This document shows positions 2,699 to 64,000 of a DNA stretch of 64,000 bases, in pieces (the stretch's first letter is position 1; every line of letters begins with the position of its first letter). Both the position numbers and the translations under genes were made by a program. Under the pieces are notes generated by a model. It was not told the origin of the DNA. It ran no database searches and worked only from the letters and a program-made list of their open reading frames with translations. The DNA is from Mobula hypostoma (Eukaryota). The DNA lies in the NCBI RefSeq assembly GCF_963921235.1, contig NC_086108.1, positions 88,290,001 through 88,354,000 on the forward strand, read 5' to 3'.

Positions 2699-2923
2699 TT
2701 AAAATTTAATTTATTCTATGACCAGCTATACTTTAGTTCTTTTTGTTTGTAGGTACTGGACTAGTATTATATTAACACTACACTACTTAACCCATGTGAC
2801 AACATGCCCAGTATATTATATGTTTAGGTGTGTTTCTGTGTTCTTGTAACAAGGTGTGTCTTAATCCTATTTGGAGTGAATTCCATTGTTTATCTAATGT
2901 CTCTTGTTACCCTTAATTTTCAG

Positions 2924-6817: not shown

Positions 6818-7015
6818 ACACGCCCAACATGCTGGAGGAACCCAGCAGTTCGGGCAGCATCCGTGGAAACAATCAGTCAACGTTTCGGGCTGAGACCCTC
6901 GTCCTGAAACGTTGACTGTTCGTTTCTACGGATGCTGCCCGACCCGCTGAGTTCCTCCAGCGTGTTGTGCGTGTTGCTTTGACCCCAGCATCTGCAGAGT
7001 ATTTTGTGTTTACGA
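6818..7015. mobile_element. Fold-back (palindromic) PLE terminal-repeat insertion
   Basis: Inverted arms at ~6816-6889 and ~6903-6976; 15-bp TSD ATCACTCC(C/T)GAATCA at 6803-6817 and 7016-7030. Confidence 0.85.
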
Positions 7016-7104
7016 ATCACTCCTGAATCACCTCATTTTGCAAAGTCTTTTTTGCTCAGCTTCTTCTCTAACTGTTGGCACATTTTATTTTTTGCTTATG
7101 TTAG

Positions 7105-8205: not shown

Positions 8206-8340
8206 ATAAGAGAAAATCTGCAGATGCTGGAAATCCAAGTAACAAACACAAAATGCTGGAGGAACTCAGCAGGCCAGGCAGCATTTCTGGAAAAGAGTAC
8301 AGTCGACATTTCGGGCCAAGACTCATCCTGCTGCAGGATG
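8206..8340 (-). mobile_element. PLE terminal-repeat insertion
   Basis: pLTR sequence; 11-bp TSD TATGCCCACAA at 8195-8205 and 8341-8351. Confidence 0.8.
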
Positions 8341-10345: not shown

Positions 10346-10577
10346 CAGAACCCTTCCCTGTTAAGCATCTTCTGCCCAGCTAGATAAGGTTATGGGAAGC
10401 AGTCATCCTTAATGGACTGTGAAGGAGAGAGAGGGAGTAACATTCAGGTTCATTACATGTTCAGAATTAGTACCACAATTGTATACCATGTATTGTATCC
10501 ATAGGTATCCTCTAACTTCCCACTAGTTTTTGTTCGATTATATGTCCTCTGTTTGGGTTTTATGTTGGCTCTTGTTA

Positions 10578-12578
10578 GCCAAAGGTGACACGACTGTGGC
10601 TAACAAGAGAATTCAAAGCCAACGTAAAAGCTAAAGAGAAGGTATATTATAGAGCAAAAATTTGTGGGAAGTTAGAGGACTGGGAACAGAAGGCAACTAA
10701 AAAAGTCATTAAAAAGGTAAAGATGGAATACGAAAGTAAGCTAACCAATAATATTAAAGGGGATATCAAAAGTTTCTACAGATACATAAAGTGTAAAAGA
10801 GAGGCGTGAGTAGATATCAGACCGCTGGAAAACGATGCTGAAGGGGTAGTAATGGGGGACAACGAAATGGTAGATGAACTGAATAAGTATTTTCCATCAG
10901 TCTTCATGGTGGAAGTTCCAGGTGTCAGGGGTCATGAAGTGTGTGAAGTTACCATAACTACAGAGAAGGTTCTTGGGAAACTGAAAGGCCTGAAGGTAGG
11001 TAAGTCACCTGGACCAGATGGTGTACACCCCAAGTTCTGAAAGAGGTGGCTGAAGAGATCGTGGAGGCATTAGTAATGATCCTCCAAGAATCACTAGATT
11101 CTGGAATGGTTCCGGAAGACTGGAAAATTGCAAATGTCACTCCACTCTTCAAGAAGGAAGAGAGGCAGAAGAAAGGAAATTATAGGCCAGTTATTCTGAC
11201 CTCAGTGATTCGGAAGATGTTGGAGTCAATTATTAAGGATGAGACCTCAGGGCATTCGGAGGCACAATGATAAAATAAGCTGACAGGCCATTTTCCTCAA
11301 GGGAAAATCTTGCCTGACAAATCTGTTGGAATTCTTTCAAGAAGTAACAAGCAAGGTAGACAAAGGAGAATCAGTTGATGTTATGTACTTGGATCTTCAG
11401 AAGGCCTTTAACAAGGTACCACACATGAGACTGCTTAACAAGCGACCTCAGAAGTAACATTCAGATTCATTACCTGGTCTTACGATATTACAGGAAAGAT
11501 TCTAGCATGGATAAAGCAGTGGCTGATTGGCAGGAGGCAAAGCATGGGAATAAAGGGAGCCTTTTCTGGCTGGCTGCCAGTGACTAGTGGTGTTCCACAG
11601 GGGTTTGTGTTGGGACTGATTCGTTTTCCATTGTATGTCAATGATTTGGCTGACAGAGTTGATGAATTTGTTACAAAGCTTGCAGATGATATGAAGATAG
11701 GTGGAAGGGCAGGTAGTTTTGAGAAAGTAGAGAGGCTACAGAAGGACTTAGACAGATTAGGAGAATGGACAAAGAAATGGCAGATGGAATACAGTGTCAG
11801 AAGGTCATGCATTTTGGTAGAAGAAATGAAAGGGTTGCCTATTTTTTAAAATGGAGAGAATATACAAAAAGCTGAGGTGGAAAAGTACTTTGGAGTGCTT
11901 GTGCAGGGCTCCCTAAAGGTTAATTTGCAGGTTGAGTCTGTGGTGAGGAAGGCAAATGCAATGTTAACATTCATTTCAAGAGGACTAGAATGTAAAAGCA
12001 AGGATGCAATGTTGAGACGTTATAAAGCATTGGAGAGGCCTCACTTGGAGTATTGTGAGCCGTTTTGGGCCTTTTATCTAAGACAGGATGTACTGAAACT
12101 GGAGAGGGTTCAAAGGAGGTTCACAAAAATGATTCCAGATTGAGTGGCTTGTCTCATGAAGAACGTTTGATGGCCCTGGGCCTGTATTTGCAGGAATTCA
12201 GAAGAAGGGTGACCTCATTGAAACCTATCAAATGGTGAAAGGCCTTGATAGGGTAGATGTGGAGAGGATGCTCTCTATGGTGGGAGAGTCTAATACTAGA
12301 GGACACTGCCTCAGAATAGAGGGGCGTTCTTTTAGAACAGAGATGAGGAGGAATTTCTTTAGCCAGGGAGTGGTGAATCTGGCAGCTTTGGAGGCCAAGG
12401 CTTGATATATATTTAAGGCAGAGGTTGATAGATTCTTGACTGGCTTGAATGGATACAGGGAGAATGCAGAAGATTGGAGCTGAGAGGAAAATTGGATCAG
12501 CCGTGACGGAATGTTGGAGCAGACTCCCTGGACCAAATGGGCTAATTCTGTTCCTATATCTTATGGTCTTATGGTCTT
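10578..12578 (+). mobile_element. CR1 LINE, 5'-truncated, degenerate ORF2 (RT)
   Basis: KSPGPDGVHP, PEDWKIANVTPLFKK, NYRPV, VTSGVPQG, KLADDMK, RPHLEYC motifs across frameshifts; (TTATGGTC)n tail. Confidence 0.93.
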
Positions 12579-13559: not shown

Positions 13560-13930
13560 AGCTTTCTGGCTCCACTCCTACCCCTTCTCCTCAACTGCTC
13601 ATTACCTCCATCTGAGGCCCCTCCTCCTTCCCTTTCTCTCATGGTCAACTCTCCTCTTCTATCAGATTCCTTCTTCTTCAGCCCTTTACCACTTCCCATC
13701 TTCTCACTTTGTTCCTCTCCCCAAACCACCCACCTTTCCCCCTCACCTGGTTTCAACTATCACTTGCCTGTTTGTACTACTTCCTACCTATACCCCCACC
13801 TTCATATTCCTGTTTCTTCCCCCTTCCTTTCCAGTCCTGATGAAGGGTGTCAGCCTGAAACCCCAACTGTTTATTCCCCTCCATAGATGCTACCTGACTT
13901 GCTGAGCTCCTGCAGCATTTTGTGTGTGTC
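13560..13930 (+). mobile_element. PLE 3' region (pyrimidine tract plus terminal repeat with degenerate hammerhead)
   Basis: CAGTC-CTGATGA-agggtgtcagcct-GAAAC at 13832-13861; same layout as 46865-47290. Confidence 0.75.
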
Positions 13931-17828: not shown

Positions 17829-18085
17829 AAATGGGGGGAAACAAAGACAAATGGTTTGTCTGCTTCCCCTGTTCTTGATTAGACTGTAGTTTCTTATGGC
17901 CGTGTGTGTGTGTGTGTGTGTCTGTGGTGTGTGTGTTGGGGGTGGGGTGGTTTGGAATTCGGCGTGCTTTTGCCTGTAAGGATTGTTATCGGGTTTTTTT
18001 TGGAATGTGTTTATGTCACATATCTATTATATCTTCTTGTTACCTTAATTTCATAACTGAAATTGTTGTACTTCCTCAAATTCAG

Positions 18086-18244
18086 GCAAAAAGTCAATTT
18101 AAGCACCGTTCTACTGCAAACAATGTCGAGATATTTGTGCCAGTTCCTAGCGATGCTGACTCACCAAAATTCAAGACCAGTACCGGCAATGCAAAGTGGC
18201 TGCCAGAAAAGAATGTTGTTGTCTGGTCGATCAAGTCTTTCCCT
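18086..18244 (+). CDS. ap1m3: AP-1 mu1 coding exon (exon 9 equivalent)
   Basis: ttcag|...cct|gtgagt, 159 nt; AKSQFKHRSTANNVEIFVPVPSDADSPKFKTSTGNAKWLPEKNVVVWSIKSFP. Confidence 0.96.
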
Positions 18245-18953
18245 GTGAGTAATATGTGGATGGTTGAAGATAGTGCTGTCATAGTGGTTCAGCAAACCAG
18301 AACGGGTAAGGTGTCTTTATCCTGCCCTTCCGCTGTTTAAACACTGGGAAAGGTGAAGCTGCAGGAGCTTCTCAAAGGGAGGTCTACGCAACAGATTTGG
18401 TGAAAACCTTTGAACAGTTTTCTGGGATTACAACTTGACAAATTTTCCATCCAAATTACTCTAGTCCAAGTAGAATGGAGAAATTATTAAGATTGATATA
18501 TTATTTGAATTATTTGGATTATTTACTCTGGGTAGGAAAGCAGTTATTTTATTTAAGAAAATACATTTATTTCCATGTTGAATTTCATGTCCATCATGAG
18601 AAGTCGTAGAGCAATTTATACCCAATGAAGTATACCTGAAGGGTAGTCAATATAGTAGTTTAAGCAATGTGGCAGCCTGTTTGCATCCAGAATATACAAC
18701 AGTGAAATAACAACTATATTATATAAAATATTGAATAAGGGATAAATATTGAAAAGGATTCCTGTCCTCCATCAACCGGGAAATGCCCTCTTCTCGGGAA
18801 GGAGGTACAGGAGTCTGAAGACACGCACCCACCATTTTAAGAACAGCTTCTTCCCCCCTCCCCCTCATCAGATTTCTGAACGGACAAGAAATCAACCCAT
18901 GAACTCTATCTCACTATTTTTTTTTACTCTTTTTGCTCTACTTATTTAATATA

Positions 18954-20453
18954 CAGTATTCACCCTCCCACTTGGAAATATTTGTGTTATATTGCTTTAC
19001 AACATTGAATCACAGTGGATTTAATTTGGCTTTTTTTTGACACAGATCAACAGAAAAAGACTCTTTCACGTCAAAGTGAAAAGAGATCTCTACAAAGTAA
19101 TCTAAATGAATTAAAATAAAACTCAAAATAACTGATTGTATAAGTATTCACCCTCTTCAAGTCTGTATTTAGTAGGTGCACCTTTGGAGGCAATATACAG
19201 ACTTGAGTCTGTGTGGAGAGGTCTCTATCTGAACACTACAATTTTGCCCCATTCTTCTTCAGAAAACTGCTCAAGCTCTATCAGATTACATGGGGAATGT
19301 AAGTGAACAGCCATTTTCAAGTCGAGCCACAAAATCTCAATTGCATCGAGATCTGAACTCTGACTTGACCATTCCAGGACATTAACTTTATGGTTTTTTA
19401 AGCCATTCCTGTGTAGCTTTGGCTTTAAGCTTGGGGTCCTTGTCTCGCTGGGGAAAAAAACATTCTCCCAAATCGCAGTTTTCTTACAGACTGCATCAGG
19501 ATTTCCTCCAGGATTTCCCTGTATTTTGCTGCAATCATTTTATCCTCTACTTTCACAAGTCTTCTAGGGGCCTGCTGCAGTGAAGCAGCCACCACCATGC
19601 TTCATGGTAGGGATGGTGTGATTTTGATGATGTACGGTGTTTAGCTTACACCAAACGTAGCCAAGATTTCATGTGAGTTTCTTTCAACACTGGCTTTCTC
19701 TTTGCCACTCTCCCATAAAGCTGCAACTGGTGAAGCATCTGGGCAACAGTTGTTGTATGCACGGTCTCTCCCATCTCAGCTCTGAAGATTGTAACTCCTC
19801 CAGAGTTGTCATAGGTCTCTTGGTGACCTCCCTCACTAGTCCCCTTCTTGCACGGTCACTCAGTTTTTGAGGATGGCCTGCTCTAGGCAGATTTACAGCT
19901 GTGCCATATTCTTTCCACTTCTTCATGATTGTCTTAACTGTACTCCAAGGGATACTCAGTGACTTGGAAATTTTCTTGTATCCATCTCCTGGCTTGTCCT
20001 TTTTGATAACCTTTTCACAGAGTTGCTTGGAGTGTTGTTCTGTCTCCATGGTGTAGTTTTTGCCAGGAGACTGACTCAACAGCAGCTGGACCTTCCAAAT
20101 ACAGGTGTATTTTTACTACAATCAATTGAAACACCTTGTCTGCACAGGTTTTCAAAAATAGATATTCATTTAGCTAACCGTGTGACTTCTAAAACCAATT
20201 GGTTGCACCAGTGATGATTTGGTGTGTCATATTAAATGGGGGCGAATACTTTTATCAATTATTTTGTGTTTTATACTTGTAATTAATTTAGATGATTTTG
20301 TAGAGATCTGTTTTCACTTTGGCACGAGAAAATGTTTTTCTGTTGATCAGTGTCAAAAAAAAGCCAAATTAAATCCACTGCGATTCAATGTTGTAAAATA
20401 ATAAAACATGAAAACTTCTGTGGGGGGGTGGTGAATACGTTTTATAGGCACTG
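18954..20453 (-). mobile_element. Tc1/mariner DNA transposon, Passport-like IR/DR type, defective
   Basis: TA-CAGT...ACTG-TA ends; ~200-nt TIRs with repeated GTATTCACC; paired-like HTH ORF 19684-20079 (GYKKISKSLSIPWSTVKTIMKKWKEYGT...RPMTTLEELQ). It interrupts a Rex1/Babar tail (18750-18950 and 20456-20566). Confidence 0.92.
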
Positions 20454-22719: not shown

Positions 22720-22978
22720 CAACACACATCAAAGTTGCTGGTGAACGCAGCAGGCCAGGCAGCATCTTTTTTTTTGGAGAATAATATGTTGGACCTGGAG
22801 GCTGGTGGGGTGGTAGGTGAGGACCAGGGGAACCCTATTCCTAGTGGGGTGACGGGAAGATGGAGTGTGAGCAGATGTACGTGAAATGGGGGAGATGCGT
22901 TTGAGAGCAGAGTTGATGGTGGAGGAAGGGAAGCCCCTTTCTTTAAAAAAAGGACATCTCCCTCGTCCTGGAATGAAA
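22720..22978 (-). mobile_element. PLE internal ORF fragment fused directly to a terminal-repeat end
   Basis: Minus ORF FFKERGFPSSTINSALKRIS...RVPLVLTYHP, then an A-run, then the pLTR 3' end. Confidence 0.8.
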
Positions 22979-23134
22979 CTCCTTCCCTCTGTTTTGCTGT
23001 CCTCTCCCTCTTCCCCCACCTTTCTATACTCTAGCCCCAGCAGAGAAAAGTTAAAATGACAGTTGTAATATGAAATATCACTGGAAAATGTTTGGGAAAA
23101 TTCACTACATGCATGCTTTTTTATCGCCCACTAG

Positions 23135-33113: not shown

Positions 33114-33151
33114 CAGTCTATGTTTCGGGCTGACGCACTTCTTCAGGACTG
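33114..33151 (-). ncRNA. Minimal hammerhead ribozyme motif, partly degenerate
   Basis: Minus strand reads cagtc-CUGAAGA-agugcgucagccc-GAAA-c-AUA-gacug: stem I and core intact, stems II and III weakened. Confidence 0.55.
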
Positions 33152-34177
33152 AAAGGAAGGGGGTTGATGCCAGAATTAAAAGGTAGGGGAGGGGAAAGAG
33201 GCTAGCTGGAAGCTGATAGGTGAAGCCAGGTGGGTGGGGAAGGTCATGGGCTGGAAAAGAAAGAATCTGATAGGAGAGGAGAGTGGAGAATGGGAAAAAA
33301 AGGACACCCGGGGGAAGTAATAGGCAGGCGAGAAGAAGTGAAAGGTCAGAGATGGAATGGAAGAAGGGGGAGGGGGAAAATATTTTTCACCAGAAGGAGA
33401 AATTGATACTCATGCCATCAGTTTGGAGGGTACCCAGATGGAATATAAGGTGTTTGCTCCTCCATCCTGAGGGTCGCCTCATCTTGACACAAGAGGAGGC
33501 CATGGATTGACACGTTGGACGGGAATGAGAATCGGTATTAAACTGTTTGACCACCGGGAATTCCCGCTTGTGGTGGATGGTGCAGAAGTGCTTGATGAAG
33601 CGATCCCCCAATTTACGACGGGTCTCACCAATGTACAGGAGGCTGCATCAGGAGCACCGCACACAATAGATGACCCCAGCAGATTTGTAGATGAAGTGTT
33701 GCCTCACCTGGAAGGACAGTTTGGGGCCCTGAATGGAGGTGAGAGAGGACAGGGATAGCACTTAGGCTGCTTGCAGGGTTAAGTGCCTGGGAGAAGGGGC
33801 AAATGTACAAGGGCATCACAGAAGCACCGATCAGTGTGGAAAGGTGGGGGTGGGGGGAGGTAAAAATATGTTTTGTGGTAGGATTCTTCTGGAGATGGCA
33901 GAGGTTGGGAGGATAATGTGTTGGATGTGGAGAATGGTAGGGTGGTAGGTAAGGACAAGAGGGAGTCTATCATTATGGCAACAGGAAGATGGGGTGAATG
34001 CAAATGTATGGGAAATGAAGGAAATGTATTGAGGGCAGCATCGATAATAAAGTGAGGGAAACCCTGTTCTTTAAAGAAGGAGGACATCTCAGATGTCCAG
34101 GAATGGAAAGCCTTGAGAATAGATGTGCAGAGGTGAAGAAGCTGAGAAAAGGGAATCCGGTGGGAAGAGGTATAGTC

Positions 34178-39509: not shown

Positions 39510-39672
39510 TGTTGGGTATCTTCCCCTTTCCTCTCCAGTCCTGATCAAGGGTCTCAGCCTGAAACATCGATTGCTTATTCCTCTCCATAGATGCTGCCTA
39601 ACCTGTAAAGTTCCTCCAGCATTTTGTATGCGTTCCTCAAGATTTTCAGCATTGGCAGAATCTCCTGTGTTT
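39510..39672 (+). mobile_element. PLE terminal repeat (degenerate hammerhead)
   Basis: CAGTC-CTGATCA-agggtctcagcct-GAAAC-ATC followed by pLTR sequence. Confidence 0.75.
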
Positions 39673-40140: not shown

Positions 40141-40529
40141 TTCAGCAGCTAAACAGTACCTTTTGTTCCTGACTTGGCCAAAGCAAAGTGCGTTTGTGTT
40201 TGACATTAATTTCAGTTTGCTCCCCTGACATACCAGAAACAAAGTGCTTTGTGCGAGTGCCATTCGTGACAACTGCAGTGGTTAGTCTACAGTTATTGAT
40301 TAGCAATGGATTAATATTTTCATAAGGTGATATCAAATTTCTGCTTGTATGTTGTGCCAGATTTCCACCAGCCTACTAAAGTTTAAGATTAGACTCAAAC
40401 AAATTTGATTTTGGTATTAATTAGTTAAAAGCTTATTCCTGCTGTTATGTGTTCTGTGTCCACAAAAGCGAGACAAACTGGTCATTTCACTGTTTAAACA
40501 ATTCATTATTTTGAGCAGGAGTGCCCATC

Positions 40530-41192
40530 CTATATCAGGTTGGCTGTACTGGAAGAGACTTGTCTTTGTCTCCCCTCTGTAACAGCTGCTGGTATGACAT
40601 AAATGCTCAGTTCCGCTCTACCTGAAGTCCCAGTTACTATGTGGGGACAAAGCTTGAAGATTAAACTGTAGAGAAGGAGCAGGAGGAGAATGATAGAGCC
40701 GAACAGTGTAATAGCAACTCCTGCAATTAACATGTCACTCCAGGACCTGACTGAGAGATGAGGATCGGAATTTGCCAGGATTATCAGCACATAACCACAT
40801 ATGAGTATTACAGATCCAGCAATTAAAATAAGCAAATAATCAATTGACCCTCCACTTCTTAGCTTGTTAATTTGGGTCCGGTTCCTCATACAGTTCATAT
40901 CCTGGATTGCAGAGCTCAGCAGCTGCTTTAGGAGGATGCCTAAAGCTAGGAGGCACAGGACAGTTCCAACTCCCAGACGCCATTCACTCGATTTACTCGT
41001 GGCTGTGGACAATAAAACGATTCCTCCCAATCCAGTGGCCAGGATCAACACCACAGCCACGGAGTAACATAAGATTGAGCGCTTAAGGTCCTGGAACCAC
41101 CACAGTTCCACCTGATCCTCCAGAATGCTCTGTTGGATACGAAAAGGATTTGCTGGTGGTCGGCCAGGTGTGATCTCAGATTGCTCAGACAT
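40530..41192 (-). CDS. tmem125: Transmembrane protein 125, 220 aa, four hydrophobic segments, single coding exon
   Basis: MSEQ...LEDQVELWW...GLGGIVLLSTATSKSSEWRLGVGTVLCLLAL..LLKQLLSSAIQDMNC...LRSGG...SSSTANLI matches the TMEM125 signature. True start ATG at 41192, directly after a tttctccag acceptor. Confidence 0.95.
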   Translation of the reverse strand: MSEQSEITPGRPPANPFRIQQSILEDQVELWWFQDLKRSILCYSVAVVLILATGLGGIVLLSTATSKSSEWRLGVGTVLCLLALGILLKQLLSSAIQDMNCMRNRTQINKLRSGGSIDYLLILIAGSVILICGYVLIILANSDPHLSVRSWSDMLIAGVAITLFGSIILLLLLLYSLIFKLCPHIVTGTSGRAELSIYVIPAAVTEGRQRQVSSSTANLI

Positions 41193-43494
41193 CTGGAGAA
41201 ATTGTCCACAGTCATTCAAAAGGAAAATCAATATCTATCTAAGTCTTAGAAATATACAAGATTTTGAAAACACATATAGCAAAACTCAAAATTGTTCTAC
41301 TGATTGAATAATTATTTGACAAAAATCTTCAAAGTTGTTCAGATTAATTTAGAACCTATAGATAACAAGAGAACCGTGGTCTTAATAGATAGTCATGTCA
41401 CATCAGATCAGAGAACAGAAACTTCAGGAATTGGAAAGCAGTATTCACCACATTTTTGAACATGATTTTCATTTGAATAGACATTATAAATTCCATGTTA
41501 TGCTTTTCAGTATCACCTTTTCATTCATGTTCTTCAGTACATCCTTGATACCACAAATAAAGCAGCCTTGGATATATATGCCCGGACTTTTATTTGTCTT
41601 GGATGTTAGTAAGTTTGCAGAAGTTCACAGGAAAATCATAGGTAACATTATTCCAACCATCCATAAGTCTGAGCCTGTCTTATGAAATCACTCAGTGAAT
41701 TCAAACACACTATCTTCTCTAATTCTCTTCCTTACTCAGTTCCATAACGATGAGGTGAATTTCCCATCTCTCATAATGTGGTCAAGGAAAAGATGCACTT
41801 CTGATGATTTGCTGAGCCTGGGGCTATCTCAGAAAACAGGATAACATAAAGTTCACCGATGGATGACTATTGCTGCTTTTCTTAATGCAATCTTCAATTC
41901 AGAGCTATCTCTCTGTGTTAAATCTCGCCAGCATCCTGCTCCTTATTAGTAATGAGTTTCAGCCAATGGTGCAATTTCACACCGGATGGCTTTCTCAAGG
42001 TAAGGCTAACGTCTAATGAAGATGCAACTAAGAGGTGCAAACCTGATGTGAAAGAAGGCAGTCCTCCAGTCCACAAATAGTCCATGCGCACAGATTGTGA
42101 TGGTATTCTGCAGTTCCAAAGGGTATTTGCTGTTTACAAGCTGAGTTTGCAAACAGTGAGAATTCTCCAGGCTTTGTTTATCAGGGTGAGCTTACTGTCT
42201 CATTCCAATTACGCTGACTCCAGGTTAGACGTTTCTTCTGCTATATCACCTTGATCTTTTCCAGCCTGTCACAGGGCAAGGTGTTTAATTTCCAGATCGA
42301 TTACTGCCGTCTTAAAGCAGGTAACTGATTAGTCCAGCTCTGGTGGTGGAGTGAGTTGCTGCTTCAGACAACTATCTCGGAGAAGAAAGTAAATCCATTG
42401 TCAGTTTTCATCCTGCAGTTTGGCAGATTTTTCCAGAATCTTGTGGGTGGAGCTTGCTGTGCTGTTTTCCAGTTTCAGGTAAATCTCTTGTGAGCAAGCT
42501 TTGACTCTGCCTCCACTTTTGCTCCCAAGAAGATTCAGGTCCTACTATTGTTAGACCGTGCCTTTTGACAAGCTTTGTGTTGTGTTCAAATAATCCAGCC
42601 ACTTGGGCAGTTTGCAGACAGAATGGCTTGTACAACAAGCCAGTCAAAGTGCTTTGTTTAACTAAAACCTTCCTTGGTGCATTTATAATTTGGGTAGTTT
42701 ACTCCAGTGTTTCACCTGGAACAGTCAGCCACTTCCACTTAAGGTGGACTTCAGCAAATACAGAAAAATTTTACATGTACTAAAAGAAAATCTCTGATCC
42801 ACAGAAACATAAAAAGAAAATGCTTGTAATTTTAAATATGTGTGCCAGATCCCATAAAATATCATTAATATTAAAAATAGTAAATTAATGTCAGATAGAG
42901 TTTTCTAGTTTCCCTTGAAGAGAAAAAGAGCAAAACAGTTTTATATTAATACAAAGGCTTAACTCACTATCTGGCACTTTTTAAATATGTCTAATGAGTA
43001 TTGGGTCAGCCTTTGCCTGGATTACACACACACTTCCTTTGTTTTCTTACTGCCATGAGCTTCTCTTGCTTCATGCATTATACTTTATTTCTGGTCCCTG
43101 GTGTGTGAGTGTGGTCTTTGTTCAATGAATAGATCCTTTCTGTAGTTGTTATGCAGCTGGAAAATGGTGGAATGGTCGACTGGTGCTTCTGAAGAGCTGA
43201 AATGTCAGCTGGTGCCATCTCTCCATAGGTAACATGTCCTCTTGTCTTATAAATAATGGAGTCCTTTGGGGTATGACAATTGTCCTAATCTGAATGCCTG
43301 GCCACGTGGTGTAATGATTTAGTGGTGTGATTAGCATAATACTGCTGGTATTGTTGGAAGTTTTCTGAAAATAAAATCCCAATAATTTATCAGCTTTTTG
43401 ACAATGTCATTCGATTGAATCAAATATAGAGGCAAACCTTTCAGCCCATCAAACTAGTGGAAATGCCTTAAATGAGATAACCATTTAATTGATT

Positions 43495-44590: not shown

Positions 44591-45460
44591 TTTTCTGAAC
44601 CAACGTGAACAACCTCAATTGCTGCCTCAGTAGAGCAACACTATAACCACTTTGGCCACTTTGCACCATGATGGACTTTTTTTTGTTCTATATGTTTTCT
44701 TCTTGTAAAAAAATGTGTATAATTTATGCATAGTTTATGTTTTTCTTGTGAATTTTGCTATGTGCCGACACAGTCATTTATAAAGATTCTTAAATTCTCT
44801 TGACTCTTCTGCAGCCAAGAGGAACCTCATATCAGGCATCAAGAGGGCCAAGGCTGCCTATGCACAAAAACATTCAGGAACACCTGACCAATAATGATCC
44901 ACTGACTTGCGTGGCTGGGTATCAAGGGCATCAAACAGTATGGCTGATTCACACCTCCGCTCACTAATCCACTCCTCCACAACCCCAGATACCATGACTT
45001 CATCATTTCTTAGCAGTCACGTTGTGCCTAGCATTACTTTATGGACATACAATTAAACGATCTCATGTATTTATATTTACTGTGTTTATTACTATTATGT
45101 TCTTCATCTTTTGTTACACTGGCTACATCAGATCCAGAGTAACAATTATTTCATTCTCTTTTACACTTGTCTAATGGAAATCTTAAAGATGAAGATGATT
45201 TTAATTTTCCTCTGTGTCTCTCTTTAACACTCCAGTTGTAAAATTAGCCTTCTTGTATTGTCCTTCCTTGATGACAGGTGAACATATATATCCAAGGTTT
45301 CTGGTATTATATACATTAAAATTATACTATTTAAGTTATATTATCTCCTCAAAACACAGCAGAGGAAAGTATGACAGCCTGTGTGCTAGTGTGTAGCTGC
45401 AGTAGCAATGTTGATGGGTTTCACCGGGCTCATGTGAGAAAGTATATAAGAGAGAATTCC

Positions 45461-45694
45461 TCAAGTAACACACATAAAAGTTGCTGGTGAACGCAGCAGG
45501 CCAGGCAGCATCTCTTGGAAGCGGTACAGTCGATGTTTCGGGCCGAGACCTTTCGTCAGGACTAAGGGTCTCGGCCCGAAATGTCGACTGTACCTCTTCT
45601 TAGAGATGCTGCCTGGCCTGCTGCGTTCACCAGCAACTTTTATGTGTGTTGCTTGAAATTCCAGCATCTGCGGATTTCCTCGTGTTTGCGTTTT
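45461..45694. mobile_element. Fold-back (palindromic) PLE terminal-repeat insertion
   Basis: 93-nt inverted arms (45461-45553, 45564-45656) with 7 mismatches and a 10-nt spacer; TSD-like TAAGAGAGAATTCC / TAAGAGAGGATTTC. Confidence 0.9.
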
Positions 45695-46189
45695 TAAGAG
45701 AGGATTTCAGATGTTTTGAAACATTCATCTGATCCTGCAGCCATCACACTTTCCCATTAACAATTATAACATAAAGATAAGTTTGTTTGACAAATCTACA
45801 TCAAAACACCTCACTGCCCAAATCACAGACACACTCTCATCCTGCACTGGCCATTTATTGCTGCTGTTTCACAGATTTGCATGTCTGCTTGTTTTATTAT
45901 AATAATGCCAGTAACTCCACACTGTCTTACATAAGCATGCACCTCACCGTTTATGTCATACTGTTAATATTCAGGCCATGCCACTCAGAGACTTTTTCTA
46001 ATCTTATTTTGTAACTGTATGAGCTGGATCATAACTATACAGTATGCGCGGTGTGTGACTACATGGACTGTGCCTTGCACCTTCACCCCAGAGGGACAAT
46101 GTTTCATTGAGCTGTATCCATGTGTGTGGTTGAATGACAATAAACTTGGGCTTGAAACATACAGTGAAGCGCATCCCTTGCATCAAATC

Positions 46190-46552: not shown

Positions 46553-47290
46553 ACCTGTGAGTCGGCTGGGGTGATATACTGCGCCTGGTGCTCCTGATGT
46601 GGCCTTCTATGTATTGGCGAAACCCGACGCAGACTGGGAGACCGCTTTGCTGAACACCTACACTCTGTCCGCCAGAGAAAGCAGGATCTCCCAGTGGCCA
46701 CACATTTTAATTCCACATCCCATTCCCATTCTGACATGTCTATCCATGGCCTCCTCTACTGTAAAGATGAAGCCACACTCAGGTTGGAGGAACAACACCT
46801 TATATTCCGTCTGGGTAGCCTCCAACCCGATGGCATGAACATCGACTTCTCTAACTTCCGCTAATGCCCCACCTCCCCCTCGTACCCCATCCGTTATTTA
46901 TTTTTATACACACATTCTTTCTCTCACTCTCCTTTTTCTCCCTCTGTCCCTCTCACTATACCCCTTGCCCATCCTCTGGGTTTCCCCCCCCCTTGTCTTT
47001 CTCCCCGGACCTCCTGTCCCATGATCCTCTCATATCCCTTTTGCCAATCAACTGTCCAGCTCTTGGCTCCATCCCTCCCCCTCCTGTCTTCTCCTATCAT
47101 TTTTGGATCTCCCCCTCCCCCTCCCACTTTCAAATCTCTTACTAATTCTTCCTTCAGTTAGTCCTGACGAAGGGTCTCGGCCTGAAACGTCGACTGTACC
47201 TCTTCCTAGAGATGCTGCCTGGCCTGCTGCGTTCACCAGCAACTTTGATGTGTGTTGCTTGAATTTCCAGCATCTGCAGAATTTCTGTTG
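46553..47290 (+). mobile_element. Young 5'-truncated Penelope-like element: GIY-YIG endonuclease, 3' region and terminal repeat
   Basis: Manual translation of 46553-46864: TCESAGVIYCAWCS*CGLLCIGETRRRLGDRFAEH...PVATHFN...LEEQHLIFRLGSLQPDGMN (one stop); 16-bp TSD TCTCTGCTACA(C/T)CTGT at 46543-46558 and 47291-47306. Confidence 0.92.
47160..47195 (+). ncRNA. Minimal type I hammerhead ribozyme (PLE-associated, dimer type)
   Basis: aguc-CUGACGA-a-gggu(cucg)gccu-GAAA-C-GUC^-gacu: stem I aguc/gacu, 4-bp stem II with tetraloop, palindromic ACGU in place of stem III, GUC cleavage triplet at 47189-47191. Confidence 0.8.
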
Positions 47291-47526
47291 TCTCTGCTAC
47301 ATCTGTTTGTTTTTGCAATCAAGTACACAGTCTAATTACACTGACTGTTCATTATGTTCGAGCCCCTGCCCCCCACTCCCGTGACATTGAAAGGTTGTGC
47401 CACATCCCACTATCTCAGTGAAAGGAACAGACTTGAGATTTGCTTGGGTTCAGGTGCTTATTTAGGTCATTATCTGGTATCCCGTGCAGTACCCTCACCA
47501 GGACCTTCTCAACGTTCTCAAAATTC

Positions 47527-47710
47527 ACAAGCAAAAGAAAATCTGCAGATGCTAGAGATCCAAGCAACACACACAAAATGCTGGAGGAACTCAGCAGGCC
47601 AGGCAGCATCTATGGCAAAGAGTACAGTTGACATTTGGGCCTGAAACATTGACTGCCCTTTTTTCTATAGATGCTGCCTGGCCTGCTGAGTTCCTCCAGC
47701 ATTTTGTGCA
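47527..47710. mobile_element. Fold-back PLE terminal-repeat insertion
   Basis: Inverted arms at ~47572-47637 and ~47640-47708; decayed TSD GTTCTCAAAATTC / GTCCCCAAATTTC (10/13). Confidence 0.8.
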
Positions 47711-48427: not shown

Positions 48428-51400
48428 TAAAGACTTTCTGAATTTTTCCCATCTGTAAAGAATCAAAAATTATAATCTTACCATGGACCAACCACATAGA
48501 CATGAGAAAACAAAGATACCCCACTGATCTAAAAAATGATTATTTTCAAATATACTCCAGAAAGTACTTGCACAAAATGTTGCAGTTGAAGATAATGTGT
48601 AAGCCTTACTGATTTCTTGATTTTGTGTATATACTGAATTCTAAAATTAGCTTTTGTATATTGGTAGTGAAGTAGGCCATGATAGTTTGATAATTAAACA
48701 ATTGACTGAGTTGTAAGAAATAAACACAATCAATTATATTTACATACAGAAAAATGTAACTGTAGCCCTCTCACTGGGGCTCATATGCAAAATTGGATTG
48801 ATAGATAACTCCACTAACAGCCACCTGACTCTGCAATGAGAAGGCAATATGTTATAATAATATACGTCTGGGTCGGTATGGTTTGTGTTTCAACTAAACA
48901 GGAAAGCTGGGAAGTTCTGATTAAAGGAACCTTGATATGAACCTTGATAAATACCGCCATACAGAATTACTGGTTGCCAAGAAATGACAATTCGTACACC
49001 AGAACATTTTACCAGCAGGACACACTACTTTTGCAAAATACTACTAAAATGAATTACCTCACAGCATAGCAGTAGAAATTTTAACCAGGGCATTACATTC
49101 ACTCCCCCACCAAAAATAGTTATGTCCTTTTGACTTTGGAACTTATTAAATCCATTTGGAATTTATTAGATCGTCACAGTATCCAAATGAATTTCATGAT
49201 TTCAGGGCCCACACCCCGCAATCCATTTGTAAATGGCAGTAACATATCTCATTATTGGGATAGCCATAACACTCTGTTTCCCCAGTGTGTTATATGCCAG
49301 CCTATCTGGGGGTTTCCTGACTCTCTGAGACATTCTTATCTCATCTTCAGCCTCAGGCACTCCTTGGGACTGTTCCTGTTTACTTGTGGGTGCTTCCCCT
49401 TATCCATCACTTGTATCTTCCAGCAGCTCAGGTCCCCCTGTCACCTGACTGAGCTCGGCTACATCCCCAATTACATTGGAGCCCAGTTTCCCCTCACTGA
49501 CTATCATCATGTCTGCCTGTCCACTGCTAGTCCCCCCACCCCGCTACATCTGAGTCAGAGTTGGGAGATTCAAACATCTCTTCATCAATTCTTGGAGAGT
49601 TTGCATAAGGGAAAGCATACACACTCATCCCCTGAGTCTGTACGGTATTCCAGTATTCAGTGTTTGGTTTCTTTTCAGTTCTTTCTGCTGATTGCCTTTC
49701 TGTTCTCCTCCTTCTGTGTAGAGTTCCAAGTCAGGTTCTGGACCAACACATACCTCCTGCCCTAAAGGCAAAAAGTGATTCCAATGGAGATTTTGACTGG
49801 GCCATTCCCATCTTCTGGCTTCAGCACCTATACAAGGGTCATCTCGCTTGGCGGCTGCCAGTTCCGCAGGATTCAAGGCAGGCAACAACTTCACATACCG
49901 AGTGGTCAAGTTGCAATATGTTTGTGGAAGGGTACAACCAGAAGCTCCTAAATGATCCACAGCTCTATCATGCCATAGCCTTTCCTCTGATTTCCCCACT
50001 GTGCAAAGCAGGCACATTGCATTAACACCAAAGGCAGAAACACCCTCCCACTCTCCGTCCATTTCTGGCACCTCATGGGAATGTCGGGACAATGCATCTG
50101 CATCGATGTTCCGCCTCCCTAAACAATATTTAAGGCTGAAATCATAAGCAGATAATGCCACCAACTAGTGATGATCCATGGCATCCAACTTCGCTGAGAT
50201 CAGGATATAAGTGAGTAGATTGTTGTCAGTCCTCTGCTTGAACTTGGCACTATATAGACAGTCACTTAATTTATCCACCACACCCCATTTCAATGCCAGA
50301 AAATCCAATTTGTGTATAGGGTAGTTTCGTTCAGAGGGTGACAGACTCTGGTTGATTAAAGCAACAGGTTTCAACCGTTTGCCCTGGTCCTGATATAGAA
50401 CACTGCCTAAGCCCTCACGGCTGGTGTTGGTATGCAGTACGTACAGAAACTGGGGGTTGATTCAAAGGGTGGCTTACTCTGGAATAGTCCTTCACAAATC
50501 TCCCACAGAATCTCCCATGGTACCCACAGAATCCAAGGAATGAGCAAAGGGTGCTCACGTTCTTGGTCCCTGGTCATATGGTCACCGCCTCTTTCTTGGG
50601 AAGATCTGTAGCCACTCCATCCTGAGAAACTATGTGCCCGACGTGGTTGACTGATGTCTTACAGAACTGGCACTTGTTCAGTGACAGTTTTAACCCTTCA
50701 GCTTTCAGGCAGTCCAGCACCTTCAGTTGCCTCGTCTCATGCTTCTCCAGTGTACACCCGAACACTGTGAGATCATCCAAGAACGCCATTACTCCAAGCA
50801 TAATCATGACCCCAACAGTCTTCTCCACAACACATTGGAAAGTAGCTGGTGCTCCTGACATACGCTGGGGCATTCTTTCAAACTGGAAGAATCCAGGTGG
50901 ACATATAAATGCCATATTCTCCTTATCAGCTTCATTTATGGGTATCTGATAATACCCACTCCTTTGGTCCAACACACTAAACCATTTTGCTCCACTCAGA
51001 CAGGCCAGAGCATTCTCAATCTGTAGAACAGTACTTTGGTCCAGGACTGTACATCAGTTCAATGAACAATAGTCAACAGACATTTGTACCTTCCCATTCT
51101 TCTTCCTTGCCACCACTTGCCTCAGTGATAATTCCAGCTTCCTTCAGTTTCAGCAGGTGCTGCTGAATATCTTCCACCTCTGCCGGTGCTAACTGTCAAA
51201 ACCTTTTGCTGAAAGCGGTGTCCTTCATCACCTGAATAGTGTGGAAAGCAAACCACATTGAACTTATCAGTAGAGAAGACATTTTCGAACTTTAACATCT
51301 TCTCCAATGTTCTCTTTTTTCCATCCTTCAGGTACCGAGGAGTCATGTAAGTTGATTGACTTTGCTGTTAACTTTCCTGATCCAGGAGATTGTCTCTCTG

Positions 51401-51977
51401 CCGGTTTTCTCACCGGAAAACTGGAGATTACGGTCACTGGGAAAAGGTATACCATCAGCATCCCATGTATGAAGGTGACCTCGGTCTCCAAGCTGCTCCT
51501 AACAATCACTGTCATCCTGTTTATGTGGAGGGCCAAAGGTTTCTGCAGTTCAGATCTCACCATCACCCCAGCAGATCTCTTCTTCGTGACCCTCCGGAGC
51601 ATCCACTAGGCATCAGGCATACCAGGGAATTTGGGGTTCCCTGGCACTCTAGCTACTTCCCCAGGATGTAAAAACGAAGGGTTTGGATTGCTTAGGAGGA
51701 ACTTGCACCTTCTAAAAAACAGTTTGAACATAGGGTGAATGGACAAGGTTTTCAAAAAATTATCTCCATTTCTCTCCTTGCATGCTCCCCGAGCCTTCTC
51801 ACAACGGGGGTATTTGTTCCCATAATAACTGGAAGCTTCATCTTTTTCAGCTGGATCTAGACAGACCAACTCCAATGTAGCAAGTGTCTCAGCTACTCCA
51901 ACATCTGCTTCCAAAAACTCCAGCTTCAATGCCAAGTAACCATCATCCAGGTAATCATCAGTATTAAGGCCCCAAAA

Positions 51978-52653
51978 GGGAGGAGAAGATGGCGGTGCAA
52001 CGCAGCTCGCAGCGGCCACGCCGGTGGTGATGTCTGTTATTTGTCAAGCAGGGTGCCGTGCACAATCCTGATTTGATGAAGACGGACGTGAGAGCACAGA
52101 GGAACATCTGGTGAAACTTCTGAAGTGCCTGCTTTGCTGCTGCTGCTACTGTGTGGTCCAGAATCTCCGGAGGGGAAGACCCCGAGTCCTTGGCTTTGCT
52201 TGTTGCTTGGCAGCCAAGGCGGGGTCAAAGCGCTCGGCAGAGGATGGTGCTCGGAGAGGTTGTGTCAGAGGGGCTGGTTGGAGGCTCGAAGTTTTCAGAC
52301 GGACTCAGAGTCCGCTGCGGTCGGGTGCTTCCAATGGTGCTGCATTGGCAAGTTTGCGGTGCTTGGAGATTCATGGCAGGGAGAGTTTCTCCCTTCTACC
52401 ACCTGCGTGAGATGATGAGTCTGTAGGGACTTTGAGACTTTATTTTTACCGTGCCCATGGTCTGTTCTTTGTCAAATTATGGTATTGCTTTGCACTGTTG
52501 TAACTATATGTTAGTGGTTTTATTAGTTTTAGTTTTGGTTTGTCCTGTGTTTTCTTGTGATATCATTCTGGAGGAATGTTGTATCATTTTTTAATGCATG
52601 CATTTCTAAATGACAATAAATGAGGACAGAGTGTCCTCATAATCTAATCTAAT
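51978..52653 (+). mobile_element. Non-autonomous retroposon (AAGATGGCG head, 3' stem-loop, (AATCT)n tail) inserted in Gypsy pol
   Basis: Full-length homolog at 57893-58562 on -; GAGGACAGAGTGTCCTC hairpin precedes the tail. Confidence 0.8.
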
Positions 52654-52979
52654 TTGTCGGGCACTGAGTGGCATCAATGGTAAATGCATCAAATACCAGA
52701 TGAAAAATGATCAGTAAAGTAGAGTAACCTAAGAACCTGTGTCAAGTATGGCTCTAGCATAAATACCTTCAATCCCTACAATTGATATGGATACACCTGA
52801 GCTTGGTGCCACTAAACCTTCAGGAATGGGGTCTTGCACTTTTCCTTGATACAGTGATTGCAACATGTTCTCTCTGAGACACCATGCTGTTCCCTTACTG
52901 GATCATTCCAAAGTTTGCTGACTTCCTTTTCTGTCTAAGGAAATGTTGGGTTACTTTCTGAAGGTTTTCCTGTCCTTCA

Positions 52980-54261
52980 CATTCCCGGTTGAAATGTCCA
53001 TCCTTACCATAGTTGTAACAGAAAATACTGGTCGCTTACCTTGTCAAGAGACCCTGTCAGCAGCAACCCTCTGCTTATTATGTCCGACTGGTGGGCCTGG
53101 CTTCTTATGAGACCTGTTACGCTTGGAGGCAGCACAAGCCATCATCAACCGAGATACCGCTGGTTTTTCACTACATCCTGCAAACCCCAGGGGTCGCTTC
53201 AGCAACAGAGGTTACTACTGAGGACTTTGCCCTGCTGATGGAGGCCTTCCACTCCTCCAGTGTATTTTCTTCCTTTCTTAATTTAATTCTCTGATCAGTT
53301 CAACGAATGAGGGAAGGGGAAGAATCTTATGAAATATTTGAATGCTTAAAGCAATCACATCACATGACAGTGCGCCCTTCACCACTAGCTCCATCCTTAA
53401 TTGATTTATCTCAGCCAGTTGAATGGCCCTTTTATAGCACAAGCAATGCAATTGTCTCTCTAGCCTGAAAATGTAGGCAGAAAGTTTCGCCCCTTTCTCC
53501 TGGAATGTGTGCCTAAACTTAATCATTAGCTCTGCTGGGTTGTTTGTTGTGCCAAAAACATTTTCTAATGCTTGCATGTTCTCTACGGGCTTGACCAACG
53601 GGTTTTCTGCCTTTAGAGATCTTACCACCTCAGTATCCGGACCTTGTAGACTCTCTACCAGTCGCTGTCTTTTCATAATATCTGAGCACTGCCTCTCATC
53701 TGATAACTGACCCAAGTCTCATGTTCTTCCTCCCCACTGGGGGTGGGCTTGATCCCAGAGAACATTCTCAGCCTACAATAACTTTGGTTCCCCATAGGTA
53801 CACTTTGGCATTTATCAACCAGTGATGTAATTGCCAAAGCCAGCTCAAAATTTCCATCAACCGCTGAAGGACCCATTAGACCTTTCACATTAGATAATGC
53901 CTTCCACTCACTTCACAGAGATGAGAACAACTTGCCTTTAAGATCTTCACCCTCAGCTACATGCCCCACTTCTCTAAAAATATGGACTGCCCATGGCTCC
54001 GCCTCTCCAGGTGCCCTTGTCCTATCAGGCACTGCAATTTGAATTACGTCACTACTAGTCTGGACTGACATGACATCCTTACCAGCTAATTGATCAAAAC
54101 ACCATTCAACCGGCATAACTTTCCCCAATACTTTTATAGAACTCAGCACTCTAATTAGCAGTTCATCAGGGCTTCAGATGCCCACCCCATTCAGATCAAA
54201 AGCATTTATTTGTGGATAACCTCTTTGAAACACACCAAACCTTAATCCCTGCGGCGTCCAT
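52980..54261 (-). pseudogene. PNMA-like gag remnant of the Gypsy element
   Basis: YCRLRMFSGIKPTPSGEEEHETW, KRQRLVESLQGP, ALENVFG, TFQEKGAKLSAYIFRLE, FCYNYGKDGHFNREC; broken by frameshifts. Confidence 0.85.
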
Positions 54262-55439
54262 AATAAAGTATCTTGATCACTTCCCCAACTCTAGTTTAAA
54301 CACAGGCTTAAACACATAAACTGCTTAATCAATTCTTAAACAGCATTCACACAGCATCTGGATCCCGGGTGGACCCCCACAAATGTAACTCTCTCACCAG
54401 GGCTTGTATACAAACTTGGTTAGATAACTAACTCTGCTAACAGCCACGTGACTCAGCAGTGAGAAGGCCACATTTATAAAAATATATGTCTAAGGTCGGT
54501 ATGATTTGGGGTTCAACCAAACAGGGAAGTTGGGATATTCCAATTAAAGGAACCTTGACTTGAGGGAATGTTGAGTAAACACTGCCCATACAGAATTACC
54601 GGCTGCCAAGAAATGATAAATTGTACACCAGTATAAAATTATAAAGAAAGTATACTTACCAATTTCAGCTATATCAAACAGTTATTAAGAGAAAGAAGAA
54701 AAAAGGCCCATTAAAATTTGATTGGTCTAAATATGCACATGACCTTTGGAGCTCATCTCTTCCAAAAGCTGGGTATAACCATTACTCATGACGCTGAATT
54801 CTCATCGCCAATCACTTGTAGAACTTCCCATCTTGAACTACTTCGTCTCACAAAGGACCCCTTGCAATAATGTCTACCCATCAGATTAAATCTTACGGGC
54901 GTCTTCCCAATCTTCTCCTCTCTGCATCTCCTGCCAAAAAACCATGAACCCAACCACTGTCCATCACTAATCTCTTTCTGCCCAGCTCTCTCTAGAACCT
55001 TCTCCTGATCCCGCCATCCTGATTGGCTGACACAATATTTCTAAGTAGAACAACATGGCTCCTTAACTTTAGCCGAGATCAAAACAATCTACCAGCAGGA
55101 CACACTGCTTTTACAGAAAACTACTAAAATGAAATTCCTCACAGCATAGCAGTAGAAATATCAACAAGGGCGTTCCTTATGCAAATGTTAGCTTCACACT
55201 GGATAAATTAAGACTGCAATTTTATTCCTAGACTAACAGGATTCAACACCCAATACTAGGTGCCAGACTCCTAAATCATGTACAGCTTTGTCAGCAATGC
55301 CTTCATCTGATAAATACATTACAAATGTGCACTTATCTTTCCAACTCTGCACTTCATTAAATATGTTTTATAAACCAACTTCTTTAATAAAGTAACTGAG
55401 GATCATAATATATATTTGAGTGGCTCTGGTAAGTTTGGT

Positions 55440-61239: not shown

Positions 61240-64000
61240 TGTGGAGACCAGCATTAAAGCTCAGAGGGCAGAAATGTTTCTATTCAAATGTGATACTGCT
61301 CTTTGACCTTCTGATGATCTGTACTGGAATAGGAACCCAAGATCAGAGTAATGGTTATGATGTTATTCAACTTCATTACATTAGTACTGAGGGTTTTCGC
61401 AAATAAAATGGCAGAGGTGTTTTAGGTTTCATAAATGCCGAAGCAACTCATTCATTGAACACCCAAAAACTGAACTCAAAGCACACTAAAAGCCCTTTAT
61501 GCAATTACATCGTTACATCAGACCAGCCTCTTAAAATGAACCCCAAATCAACGGTGGTTGTGAATTATGTATATTTTCACCAATTACATTACCCTACACA
61601 GGTACCCCACCCCCACCCAGAAATCATTAAAACTGGCATCGTGAGCCAATCTGGAACCCAGATAAACCACCAGGTTTGGGTCCTATGTTCCAAGGGTGGA
61701 GGAACAGCAGGTGCCTCTGGCTCATCCAGAGGTGCGTTGACATGCTATTGGTCAGGATGAGACGGCAGGGGCATGGTAGCGGAATCCTCCAAATCTTGGT
61801 GGGCCTGTTTTAGGTCATTTACCAGAATACATTCAGGTTTACCCCTCCTATCTATGATAAAAGTCTTTTCTCCCCGTTCCAAAATGTGGAACAGGCCATT
61901 GTAAGTGGGCCTAAGGGGACGTTGCTGTGCATCGTGGTGGACGAAAACAAACAAGGTGAATAGGTGAACAGGAATTGACTTTACTGGCGAAGGTGAATGC
62001 TATTCAGAGGCCAACTAGGGGCTTATAGAGTTAGGAATGAAATCACCTGGCACTCATAACGGCCGTCTGTATACCAACTCAGCCACGGACGACTGCACGT
62101 CCTCTTTTGGAGAAGTTCTGAGCCCCAGTAGGACCCATGGGAGATGATAATGCCAACACTCATCAATCAGAGAAGCCCTCAGAGCAGCCTTTAAGGAGCC
62201 ATGAAACCATTCGCTTCGGCCATTGGACTACGGGTGTTGCGCTGTGGTGTGACATAGCCTAACGCCGAGGTTCTGGGCCATTGCAGCCCAGAAGTCTGAT
62301 ATTTCCCCGGTCAGAGGAAGTATCAGATGGCATGCCAAACTGAGAAACCCGGGTGCTGATGAACGTCCGAGCCACGTCTGCAGCCATCGTCGATGCCAGG
62401 GGGACGACCTCTGGCCGCCTGGTGGTATGGTCCACCATTGGTAAGGAGGAGTGTGAAACTGCTGGAAGGGGGGAAGAGAACCAACAGGTCCACATTGACC
62501 TGGTCAAACCATTGCTCAGGGACCTCAAAAGGTGCCATTGTCGACTGCAGACGAAGGTTAATTTTTGCCCACTGTCACTCCACACAGGCTGCAAAAGCCA
62601 TGCCACACAAACTTCAGTGTAGCCTGTGAGGCCTTCCGGCCATGTATGGAGTCAAAAACAATCCGCTTCCAGCCTGTGGTCACGATGGGACGAGGGTGAC
62701 GGGTTGAGACATCAAACAAGAGAGAAACCCCAGCTTCTCCAAACTTAAATGTCTGTCTGTGACTGCTGTTGAGTAAGCCTAGACCTCTGGGTCAGCAGCT
62801 TGGTCGGCTGCCATGCCAGCATAGTCACCCCCTCTGTGTACGGCCTCAATGGCTGGCTGTGAGAGGTGATCAGCACCTTCTGCAGAGATGCAATGGCTGG
62901 GAAAGTCAATGGTTGATAACCCAAACTGGCAGTTAGCAGGGTTTATAATCAACCTGTGTTGGCTTAAGGGCTCGAAAAATGTTGGGAGATGGAATACATG
63001 TTTGGATTTCAATGCACCAGTGACAAGTATGCCATCCAGGTAAACAAAAAGAAAATCTAAGTCTTTTAATACAGAGTCCATCAGCTATTGGAAAGTCTGT
63101 GCTGCATTTCAGCACAGAAACTCAAAAAGGCCAAATGAGGTTATCTCAGCTGTTTTGTGACTGTCCTCTGAGCACACTGGCACCCGATGGTAGCCCCTAA
63201 CTAAAAACTGGAAAAAAGTGACTTTCTGGCTAAATGTATTGAAATATCTTGGATGTGTGGGACCGGGTAGTGATCCGGGGCAGTGACCTTGTTAAGGTGT
63301 CGGTAATCACCACATTGTCGGCAACCACCATTGGACTTAGGGACCATATGGAAGGGTAAAGTTCAGGGGCTGTTTGATTGGCGTACAATGCCAAGTCTTT
63401 CCATGTTGGCAAACTCAGCCTTCATGGTTGCCAGTTTTGTTGGGTCCAGTCTACGCATGCAGGCATGGACTGGCGGACCAGTTGTGGGAATATGGTGCTC
63501 GACCCCTATGTTTTGTGAGTTTTGTGGAGAACGCGGACTTGGTGAGGTTTGGGAGTCCACCCAGCAGTCGAGTAAACTCACATGTGGTGGTGCATGCGCT
63601 TGACAGAGTTGTTGTGGGGAACTTACTGGAGGAGCAGCGGAATGACCCAAAGTCCTTGATATCCACACGCTGGCAGTTCCTAAGGTTGACCGACAGTCCT
63701 TGGGCAGACAGGAGATCTGCACCGAGCAGAGGTCTAGCCACTTTAGCCAGGACATAGTCCCATGTGTAACTTCGTCCACTGAAGGAGAGTGTCACCAGAC
63801 GTGTCCTGTAAGTTTGGATCCCATTGCCATTGGCGGTCTCCAGTGAGGTTTGATCACTCTTTGCCTTCTCATCAATAGATGATGCTGACAGCACACTCTC
63901 CTGAGCACCTGAGTTACAGAAGAAGCTTCGACCTGAAAGGGTGTCCGTAGTGAACAGCAGATGGCCCTGGCAGCTGGAACCCATGGTGTTCACAGACTTC
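61240..64000 (-). mobile_element. Degenerate Ty3/Gypsy element (protease, RT, integrase, PPT, 3' LTR), continuing beyond the window
   Basis: FFCNSGAQESV protease, GVEHHIPTTGPPV, FVYLDGILV, VDHTTRRPEVVPL/SSDRG integrase, LRPTYNGLFHILER; G-rich PPT at ~61603-61618. Left LTR boundary uncertain. Confidence 0.88.

Follow-up and report, generated by a model that had tools for sequence, protein, structure and literature searches.

The fold-back at 45447-45708

Two facing copies of one repeat form a near-perfect hairpin at 45447-45708 of the window, the 64,000-nt stretch of DNA that was analysed as a whole. Sequence comparison placed the arms at 45461-45553 and 45564-45656, with 7 mismatches per 93 positions and a 10-nt loop (45554-45563), the same values as in a preliminary description of this DNA. 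A direct repeat (45447-45460 versus 45695-45708) matching at 12 of 14 positions flanks the hairpin, and the unit inserted between these 14-bp duplications is 234 bp long, with no host sequence between the arms. The chance of a 12/14 repeat at exactly these boundaries is about 4e-6; with the boundaries free to move by +-12 nt, 2 of 400 random pairs equalled it. The predicted fold of the hairpin strand has an energy of -175.8 kcal/mol (z -21.6), which none of 200 shuffles equalled; any pair of facing repeat copies would be expected to fold this strongly. The plus arm had been described as starting just past the first hammerhead box and carrying a tail of ~35 nt; both points were borne out, the tail measuring 38 nt. 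The features, together with the copy used as reference, are listed below.

45447-45460 (+): left copy of the 14-bp target-site duplication (TSD), 12/14 to 45695-45708; single copy in the X14 empty site
45461-45565 (-): left arm, a 5'-truncated, tailless 3' end (pLTR part) of a Penelope-like element (PLE), 105 nt; 93% identity to 47158-47262
45528-45563 (-): minimal type I hammerhead motif carrying two changes, G10.1>A (45551) and G16.2>A (45534), from motif scan, copy comparison, folding and the consensus in PMC4209133
45532/45531 (-): putative hammerhead scissile bond, placed by consensus features in the same source
45554-45565 (no strand): central junction, an imperfect palindrome of the stem I 5' strand plus the first catalytic box, from comparison with the 47158 copy in sense and antisense
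45564-45565 (no strand): 2-nt overlap at the central junction, common to both arms (comparison with the 47158 copy)
45564-45656 (+): right arm, a 5'-truncated PLE 3' end that begins after the CUGANGA box and holds no complete ribozyme (sequence comparison)
45657-45694 (+): 38-nt PLE 'tail', on the right arm only; end set by the empty site
45695-45708 (+): right copy of the target-site duplication (12/14 repeat; empty site)
46559-47290 (+): reference copy of the same subfamily, a separate insertion with a 15/16 TSD; GIY-YIG endonuclease remnant to 46864, pyrimidine-rich 3' UTR, hammerhead 47160-47195, tail

Elsewhere in the window, a TMEM125 ORF lies at 40533-41234 on the minus strand (Pfam E 2e-51), and contigs from the dataset X9, which we guess to be RNA, cover 40400-42529 without differences. 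An exon of an adaptor complex medium subunit gene lies at about 18080-18270 (+; PF00928, E 2e-14). A decayed self-inverted stretch (10508-10679; 73%) outside the PLE family adjoins LINE-like sequence. By eye from their translations, we provisionally take 48758-55174, 62259-63791 and 19684-20112 to be LTR-retrotransposon-like remnants and a Tc1-like transposase fragment.

Identity of the repeat family

A profile built from 12 window copies gave 25 matches, which came to 21 arms in 17 insertions after three weak matches (E 0.004-0.007) were dropped and one split copy was merged. The copy closest to the hairpin in sequence, 47158-47290, lies 1.5 kb off and is 91-93% identical to its arms; it forms the 3' end of an insertion opening with an ORF remnant (~46559-46864), followed by a pyrimidine-rich UTR. 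The 107-aa remnant alone matched nothing in Pfam or the PDB, and its closest atlas clusters are GIY-YIG proteins (0.93-0.94). Among 112 candidate homologs 12 passed; the best is 94% identical and is named from the ray Mobula hypostoma, and others are from Hypanus and Leucoraja. All five homologs scanned match PF01541 GIY-YIG at E 5e-4 to 8e-3, values under the curated cut-off. The homologs P0001, P0002, P0004 and P0012 carry a YIDD motif upstream of the endonuclease, which may be the reverse transcriptase core; none of the homologs scanned matched RVT_1. Pieces of the same ORF adjoin other family ends at 21.7-22.1, 22.8-23.0 and 33.4-34.2 kb. Because the sister copy ends an insertion with a GIY-YIG remnant that has ray homologs, we assign the hairpin arms, on the strength of these sequence matches, to the pLTR 3' ends of an endonuclease-bearing (EN+) PLE; the host would accordingly be a ray. 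The family motif had no match in viral_contigs or metagenome_contigs. A young-subfamily copy at 22720-22985 (-) has an A-run that joins the ORF straight to the 3' end, without endonuclease, UTR or ribozyme.

Empty site and single insertion

The site was compared with short-read contigs of three relatives, X5, X10 and X14, all from species other than the window's own; these and X9 were chosen from 24 sequencing runs, none of them on record as RNA. In X14, one 524-nt contig corresponds to 45144-45446 (letters 1-303) followed by 45695-45914 (letters 304-524), and thereby skips 248 nt, exactly the 234-nt element plus one 14-nt duplication. The empty orthologous site, which the preliminary description had proposed to look for, is thus found in X14, where the 14-bp pair formerly called TSD-like occurs as a single copy; there was therefore one insertion, with a real TSD, and the empty-site boundary fixes the right end of the tail at 45694. 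In X10, the alignment of a 455-nt contig ends at 45446 with 148 letters over, and a difference at 45785, found at equal depth (7.65) and 57 letters from a contig end, places the leftover letters at 45695-45842. We infer from these two tables, by depth and end position and with the second piece not among the matches listed, that the X10 site is empty too. In X5 (about 1-2% diverged), contigs enter the left arm (45135-45489) and exit the tail (45668-45853); these junction contigs hold 29 and 27 element letters, just below the 31-letter bridging rule, and the hairpin centre is unbridged.

At one position both arms carry a T, while the three other copies of the subfamily in the window all read G. 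This shared variant and the X14 empty site support the earlier proposal of a single retrotransposition event, and no relative with one arm, the sign of two insertions named there, came to light: X14 and X10 lack both arms, and X5 has both junctions. The flanks differ from X10 by 3.6-4.3%. Since the site is empty in X10 (and X14) and the junctions are present in X5, the insertion dates after the split from the organism of X10 and probably before the split from that of X5.

Two independent insertions, head to head by chance, might be entertained in so dense a family (21 arms in 64 kb) and with arms that are 7.5% different. However, a single TSD surrounds both arms, no host DNA separates them, they share the variant described above, and the same pattern is seen four times with one tail each. 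The empty site, which lacks both arms, largely refutes this reading, and we give it next to no credence. An assembly artefact from a chimeric fold-back read is, together with a MITE or foldback DNA transposon, just as implausible. Near-perfect palindromes are a known artefact of long reads, and the contigs used for comparison come from other species; yet the arms differ at 7 sites, and the short-read contigs of X5 show both junctions. A MITE or foldback transposon is contradicted by the 38-nt tail, which lies outside an inverted repeat that is not terminal at the right, and by the sequence itself, which comes from the 3' end of an RT/GIY-YIG element.

The summed contig depth at 45480 was 3.9e6 in X5, 1.3e6 in X10 and 330 in X14, versus about 10 on unique DNA, and over the subfamily-specific part of the arms (45480 and 45635) it was about 4e6, 1.3-1.6e6 and 330-3700, respectively; these sums give an order of magnitude only and no copy number. 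They are consistent with a lineage-specific burst of the PLE subfamily, of the order of 1e5 copies, after the split from the organism of X14.

Fold-backs across the window

Head-to-head pairs account for four of the 17 family insertions (2155-2705, 6811-7016, the hairpin at 45447-45708, and 47524-47708), and tail-to-tail pairs for none. Every one of the four has one full-tailed and one tailless arm; the short arm at 47636 stops some 10 nt before the other tailless ends. The three fold-backs other than the hairpin belong to older subfamilies. For TSDs, the flanking direct repeat of each of the 17 intervals was scored against 400 random pairs. Six intervals had repeats with p <= 0.007: three fold-backs (12/14 at the hairpin, 14/15 at 6.8 kb and 9/9 at 2.15-2.7 kb) and three single copies (13/13, 11/11 and 15/16), giving a TSD range of 9-16 bp. 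In the other 11 of the 17 intervals tested, including the fold-back at 47524-47708 (p about 0.24), no significant flanking repeat was found. Arm starts on the profile, which are ends of local alignments and good to within a few bases, fall at positions 26-45, in the 5' half of the hammerhead, in 11 of 21 arms; 8 arms reach the UTR and 2 start later. The junction of the 47.6-kb fold-back is a 4-nt palindrome in stem II. The head-to-head, one-tailed fold-back is an ordinary, routine product of PLE insertion, and as a single locus the hairpin is ordinary as well.

Two further copies bear on the ends of insertions. A tailless copy bounded by the 13/13 TSD (1860-1926, -) has its 5' end ~2 nt downstream of the putative cut site, and is the only window copy that could stem from cleaved RNA. 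A 17-nt palindrome with perfect arms (8324-8340) separates the 11/11 TSD of a single tailed copy from the 5' end of that copy, and is possibly a very short snap-back.

The hammerhead motif

A motif scan detected a minus-strand hammerhead core that has the two boxes, at about 45565-45528, as well as two other cores in the window, both in the same PLE family. Rfam gave no match at gathering in the whole window, and its six sub-threshold matches within 45300-45900 include no hammerhead. Compared with the 47158 copy, the left arm carries G10.1>A (45551) and G16.2>A (45534); besides the boxes, Cervera and de la Pena (2014; PMC4209133) name four features, of which G10.1 and G16.2 are two. The G10.1-C11.1 pair that closes stem II is absent in the left arm, with A at 10.1 and a pair probability of 0, and so is the palindromic 15.2-16.2 pair for a dimeric stem III, with C-A in place of C-G. 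By folding, stems I and II have probabilities of 0.01-0.10 in the left-arm motif alone, as against 0.87-0.99 in the 47158 motif alone; inside the whole insertion the probability is 0.00, and forcing the stems costs about 39 kcal/mol.

From these base changes and predicted folds, the left-arm ribozyme is probably dead through mutation. The earlier reading of a nearly complete minus-strand hammerhead stands as regards the core and its two boxes, but two consensus positions are changed, and AUC, which comparison with the 47158 copy identifies as a decayed GUC (G16.2>A), is ruled out as the natural cleavage triplet. Sequestration by the antisense arm, also proposed there, agrees with the stem probabilities in the whole insertion, but the arm alone already scarcely forms the stems, so that in the folding model sequestration would be true on paper and incidental. 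It carries little weight because the motif barely folds alone, because hammerheads of the minimal PLE type depend on a partner and are inefficient at cleavage (PMC4209133), and because the geometry is routine. Both arms extend across the scissile position; therefore the template RNA that was copied was uncleaved there.

In long copies, a pyrimidine tract plus CAG, resembling a splice acceptor, stands just before stem I (47141-47160, +; 13811-13835, +; 33150-33175, -; 39514-39540, +). The left arm of the hairpin begins directly after that CAG, within the 2-nt ambiguity, and the intron end of Penelope in D. virilis maps to the same spot before stem I according to PMC4209133.

How the fold-back may have formed

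The hairpin very probably arose when a Penelope-like retrotransposon of a ray, one that carries an endonuclease, inserted once and left two 5'-truncated 3' ends head to head. In the mechanism that we propose, the GIY-YIG endonuclease would nick both target strands 14 bp apart, and each nick would prime reverse transcription, from the distal start site for the tailed arm and from the proximal one for the tailless arm. Once 105-135 nt had been copied, both cDNAs would halt within the 5' half of the hammerhead, and they would join at its imperfect palindrome, either by annealing of their ends or by snap-back of one of them, followed by fill-in; the insertion would have decayed neutrally since. 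We infer the priming at both nicks. Frangieh et al. (2024; PMC11167929) describe a PLE protein that, in vitro, cuts both target strands and extends them; reverse transcription of this Anolis PLE begins at two sites that delimit the tail, and uncleaved RNA is its main substrate. The uncleaved template at the hairpin locus agrees with this last point. Our literature search, with subscription papers and figures outside its range, found no paper stating two-nick priming for PLE inversions, and gave no lead on Penelope twin priming, hairpin siRNA or chondrichthyans among the matches listed.

The second arm of the same insertion may instead have arisen by self-priming, that is, by snap-back of the cDNA or antisense template at the palindrome, with a template jump for the tail. 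This route touches the mechanism step only and overlaps with our explanation as to the identity of the element; we regard it as a serious contender that falls short of even chances. The junction is what a top-strand fold-back ending at 45565 would give, a variant common to both arms is missing from the three other copies, and Arkhipova et al. (2013; PMC3846280) explain head-to-head PLE junctions by self-priming on an antisense template. On the other hand, the 38-nt tail of the right arm is not obtainable by copying the tailless left arm, and the predicted snap-back hairpin is weak, at about -2 kcal/mol or less.

Going beyond this locus, we tentatively suggest, while holding it somewhat doubtful, that the hammerhead acts in ray PLEs as a stop-and-join site at the DNA level, where two nick-primed cDNAs, one per start site and therefore with exactly one tail between them, halt in the 5' half of the ribozyme and are joined via its palindromes, so that about a quarter of insertions become short fold-backs. 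If so, the copies, perhaps 1e5 per genome, and the empty sites of sister species would allow a direct statistical test of two-nick priming versus self-priming, and thousands of latent dsRNA hairpins directed against the PLE family would lie in ray genomes.

Function and fate

A functional silencer, a transcribed hairpin maintained by selection that either gives rise to endo-siRNA directed at the family or keeps the ribozyme locked, appears very unlikely. A transcript is predicted to fold very stably and to lose the ribozyme stems, small RNAs target PLEs in rotifer and fly (PMC3846280), and the hairpin lies ~4.2 kb upstream of the minus-strand TMEM125 ORF. However, the arms have diverged at 7 positions, mutation seems to have disabled the ribozyme already, the same 64 kb holds three further fold-backs, and the insertion is missing from two related species. 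Because it is one of four fold-backs in 64 kb, the hairpin is no special source of siRNA or cruciforms, and its 10-nt spacer and mismatches would work against the extrusion of a cruciform. Rfam miRNA matches in the hairpin region score far under gathering (46.6 versus 100 and 43.9 versus 82). None of the X9 contigs listed lies over the unique flanks of the hairpin, which has no bearing on expression either way.

The 7 differences between the arms compare with roughly 4 expected from the divergence of the X10 flanks, an excess that is within chance over so short a stretch; 2 of the 7 are CpG changes. Together with the lack of the insertion in two relatives and the many similar structures, these differences suggest neutral decay.

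Comparison with known systems

In L1 twin priming, two primers at a staggered cut give an inversion that is joined by microhomology within one TSD. The hairpin is alike in its microhomology join and single TSD and, in the mechanism proposed here, in its two primers. In L1 inversions, however, the 3' end is not duplicated, whereas here both arms are the 3' end, which accounts for the hairpin form. Non-LTR retrozymes (bioRxiv 10.64898/2026.07.22.740005) share with the insertion that they are short, non-coding and PLE-derived with a type I hammerhead, but their units stand in tandem, head to tail, and include two or more complete ribozymes, while the hairpin is inverted and has at most one. A retrozyme is ruled out, since an inverted pair with one motif takes the place of complete hammerheads arranged head to tail.

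Minimal hammerheads in pLTRs, and in Schistosoma pairs of motifs on opposite strands 100-700 bp apart, are described in PMC4209133. The left-arm motif resembles the minimal type I PLE hammerheads in its extra nucleotide after A9, 4-bp stem II, missing loop III and 4-bp stem I, and differs from them in lacking G10.1 and the palindromic 15.2-16.2 pair; the right arm lacks the first catalytic box. For Poseidon of Anolis, the two internal start sites, the cutting and extension of both strands and the uncleaved template all fit the hairpin (PMC11167929, available part). The Anolis ORF starts inside the hammerhead, where the window copies show no start codon, and the inverted arm is not modelled in that part of the account.

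The closest systems are the complex insertions of EN+ PLEs. PMC3846280 describes adjacent inverted pLTRs with a 31-bp tail on one of them, TSDs of 8-10 bp, an empty site and, where copies meet head to head, palindromes; Craig et al. (2021; PMC8557442) call an inverted 5'-truncated copy plus a one-sided 30-40-bp tail typical of PLEs, and PMC8969392 lists the same insertion features for curators. The locus shares the following traits with them: a C-terminal GIY-YIG endonuclease in the parent element, seen in the ORF remnant of the 91-93% identical copy; a hammerhead in the pLTR, all three motif matches in the window belonging to this family; an inverted 5'-truncated copy arranged head to head, as in three more of the 17 insertions; a 30-40-nt tail at a single end, here 38 nt on the right arm; an enclosing short TSD that is single in the empty site; and a palindrome or microhomology at the inverted junction. 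The copies differ from those examples in being about 105 and 131 nt long and in consisting of the 3' part of the pLTR alone, which gives the look of a small hairpin, and the TSD is 14 bp compared with 8-10 bp in the rotifer examples of PMC3846280.

The hairpin is thus a clean example, verified by an empty site, of an inverted PLE insertion that has already been described. The single locus matters little in itself; it adds a data point on inverted PLE ends, with one TSD, one tail, an uncleaved template and a junction inside the ribozyme palindrome. Counting such units throughout ray genomes could discriminate between competing accounts of how PLEs integrate, and could reveal whether small-RNA silencing draws on fold-backs.
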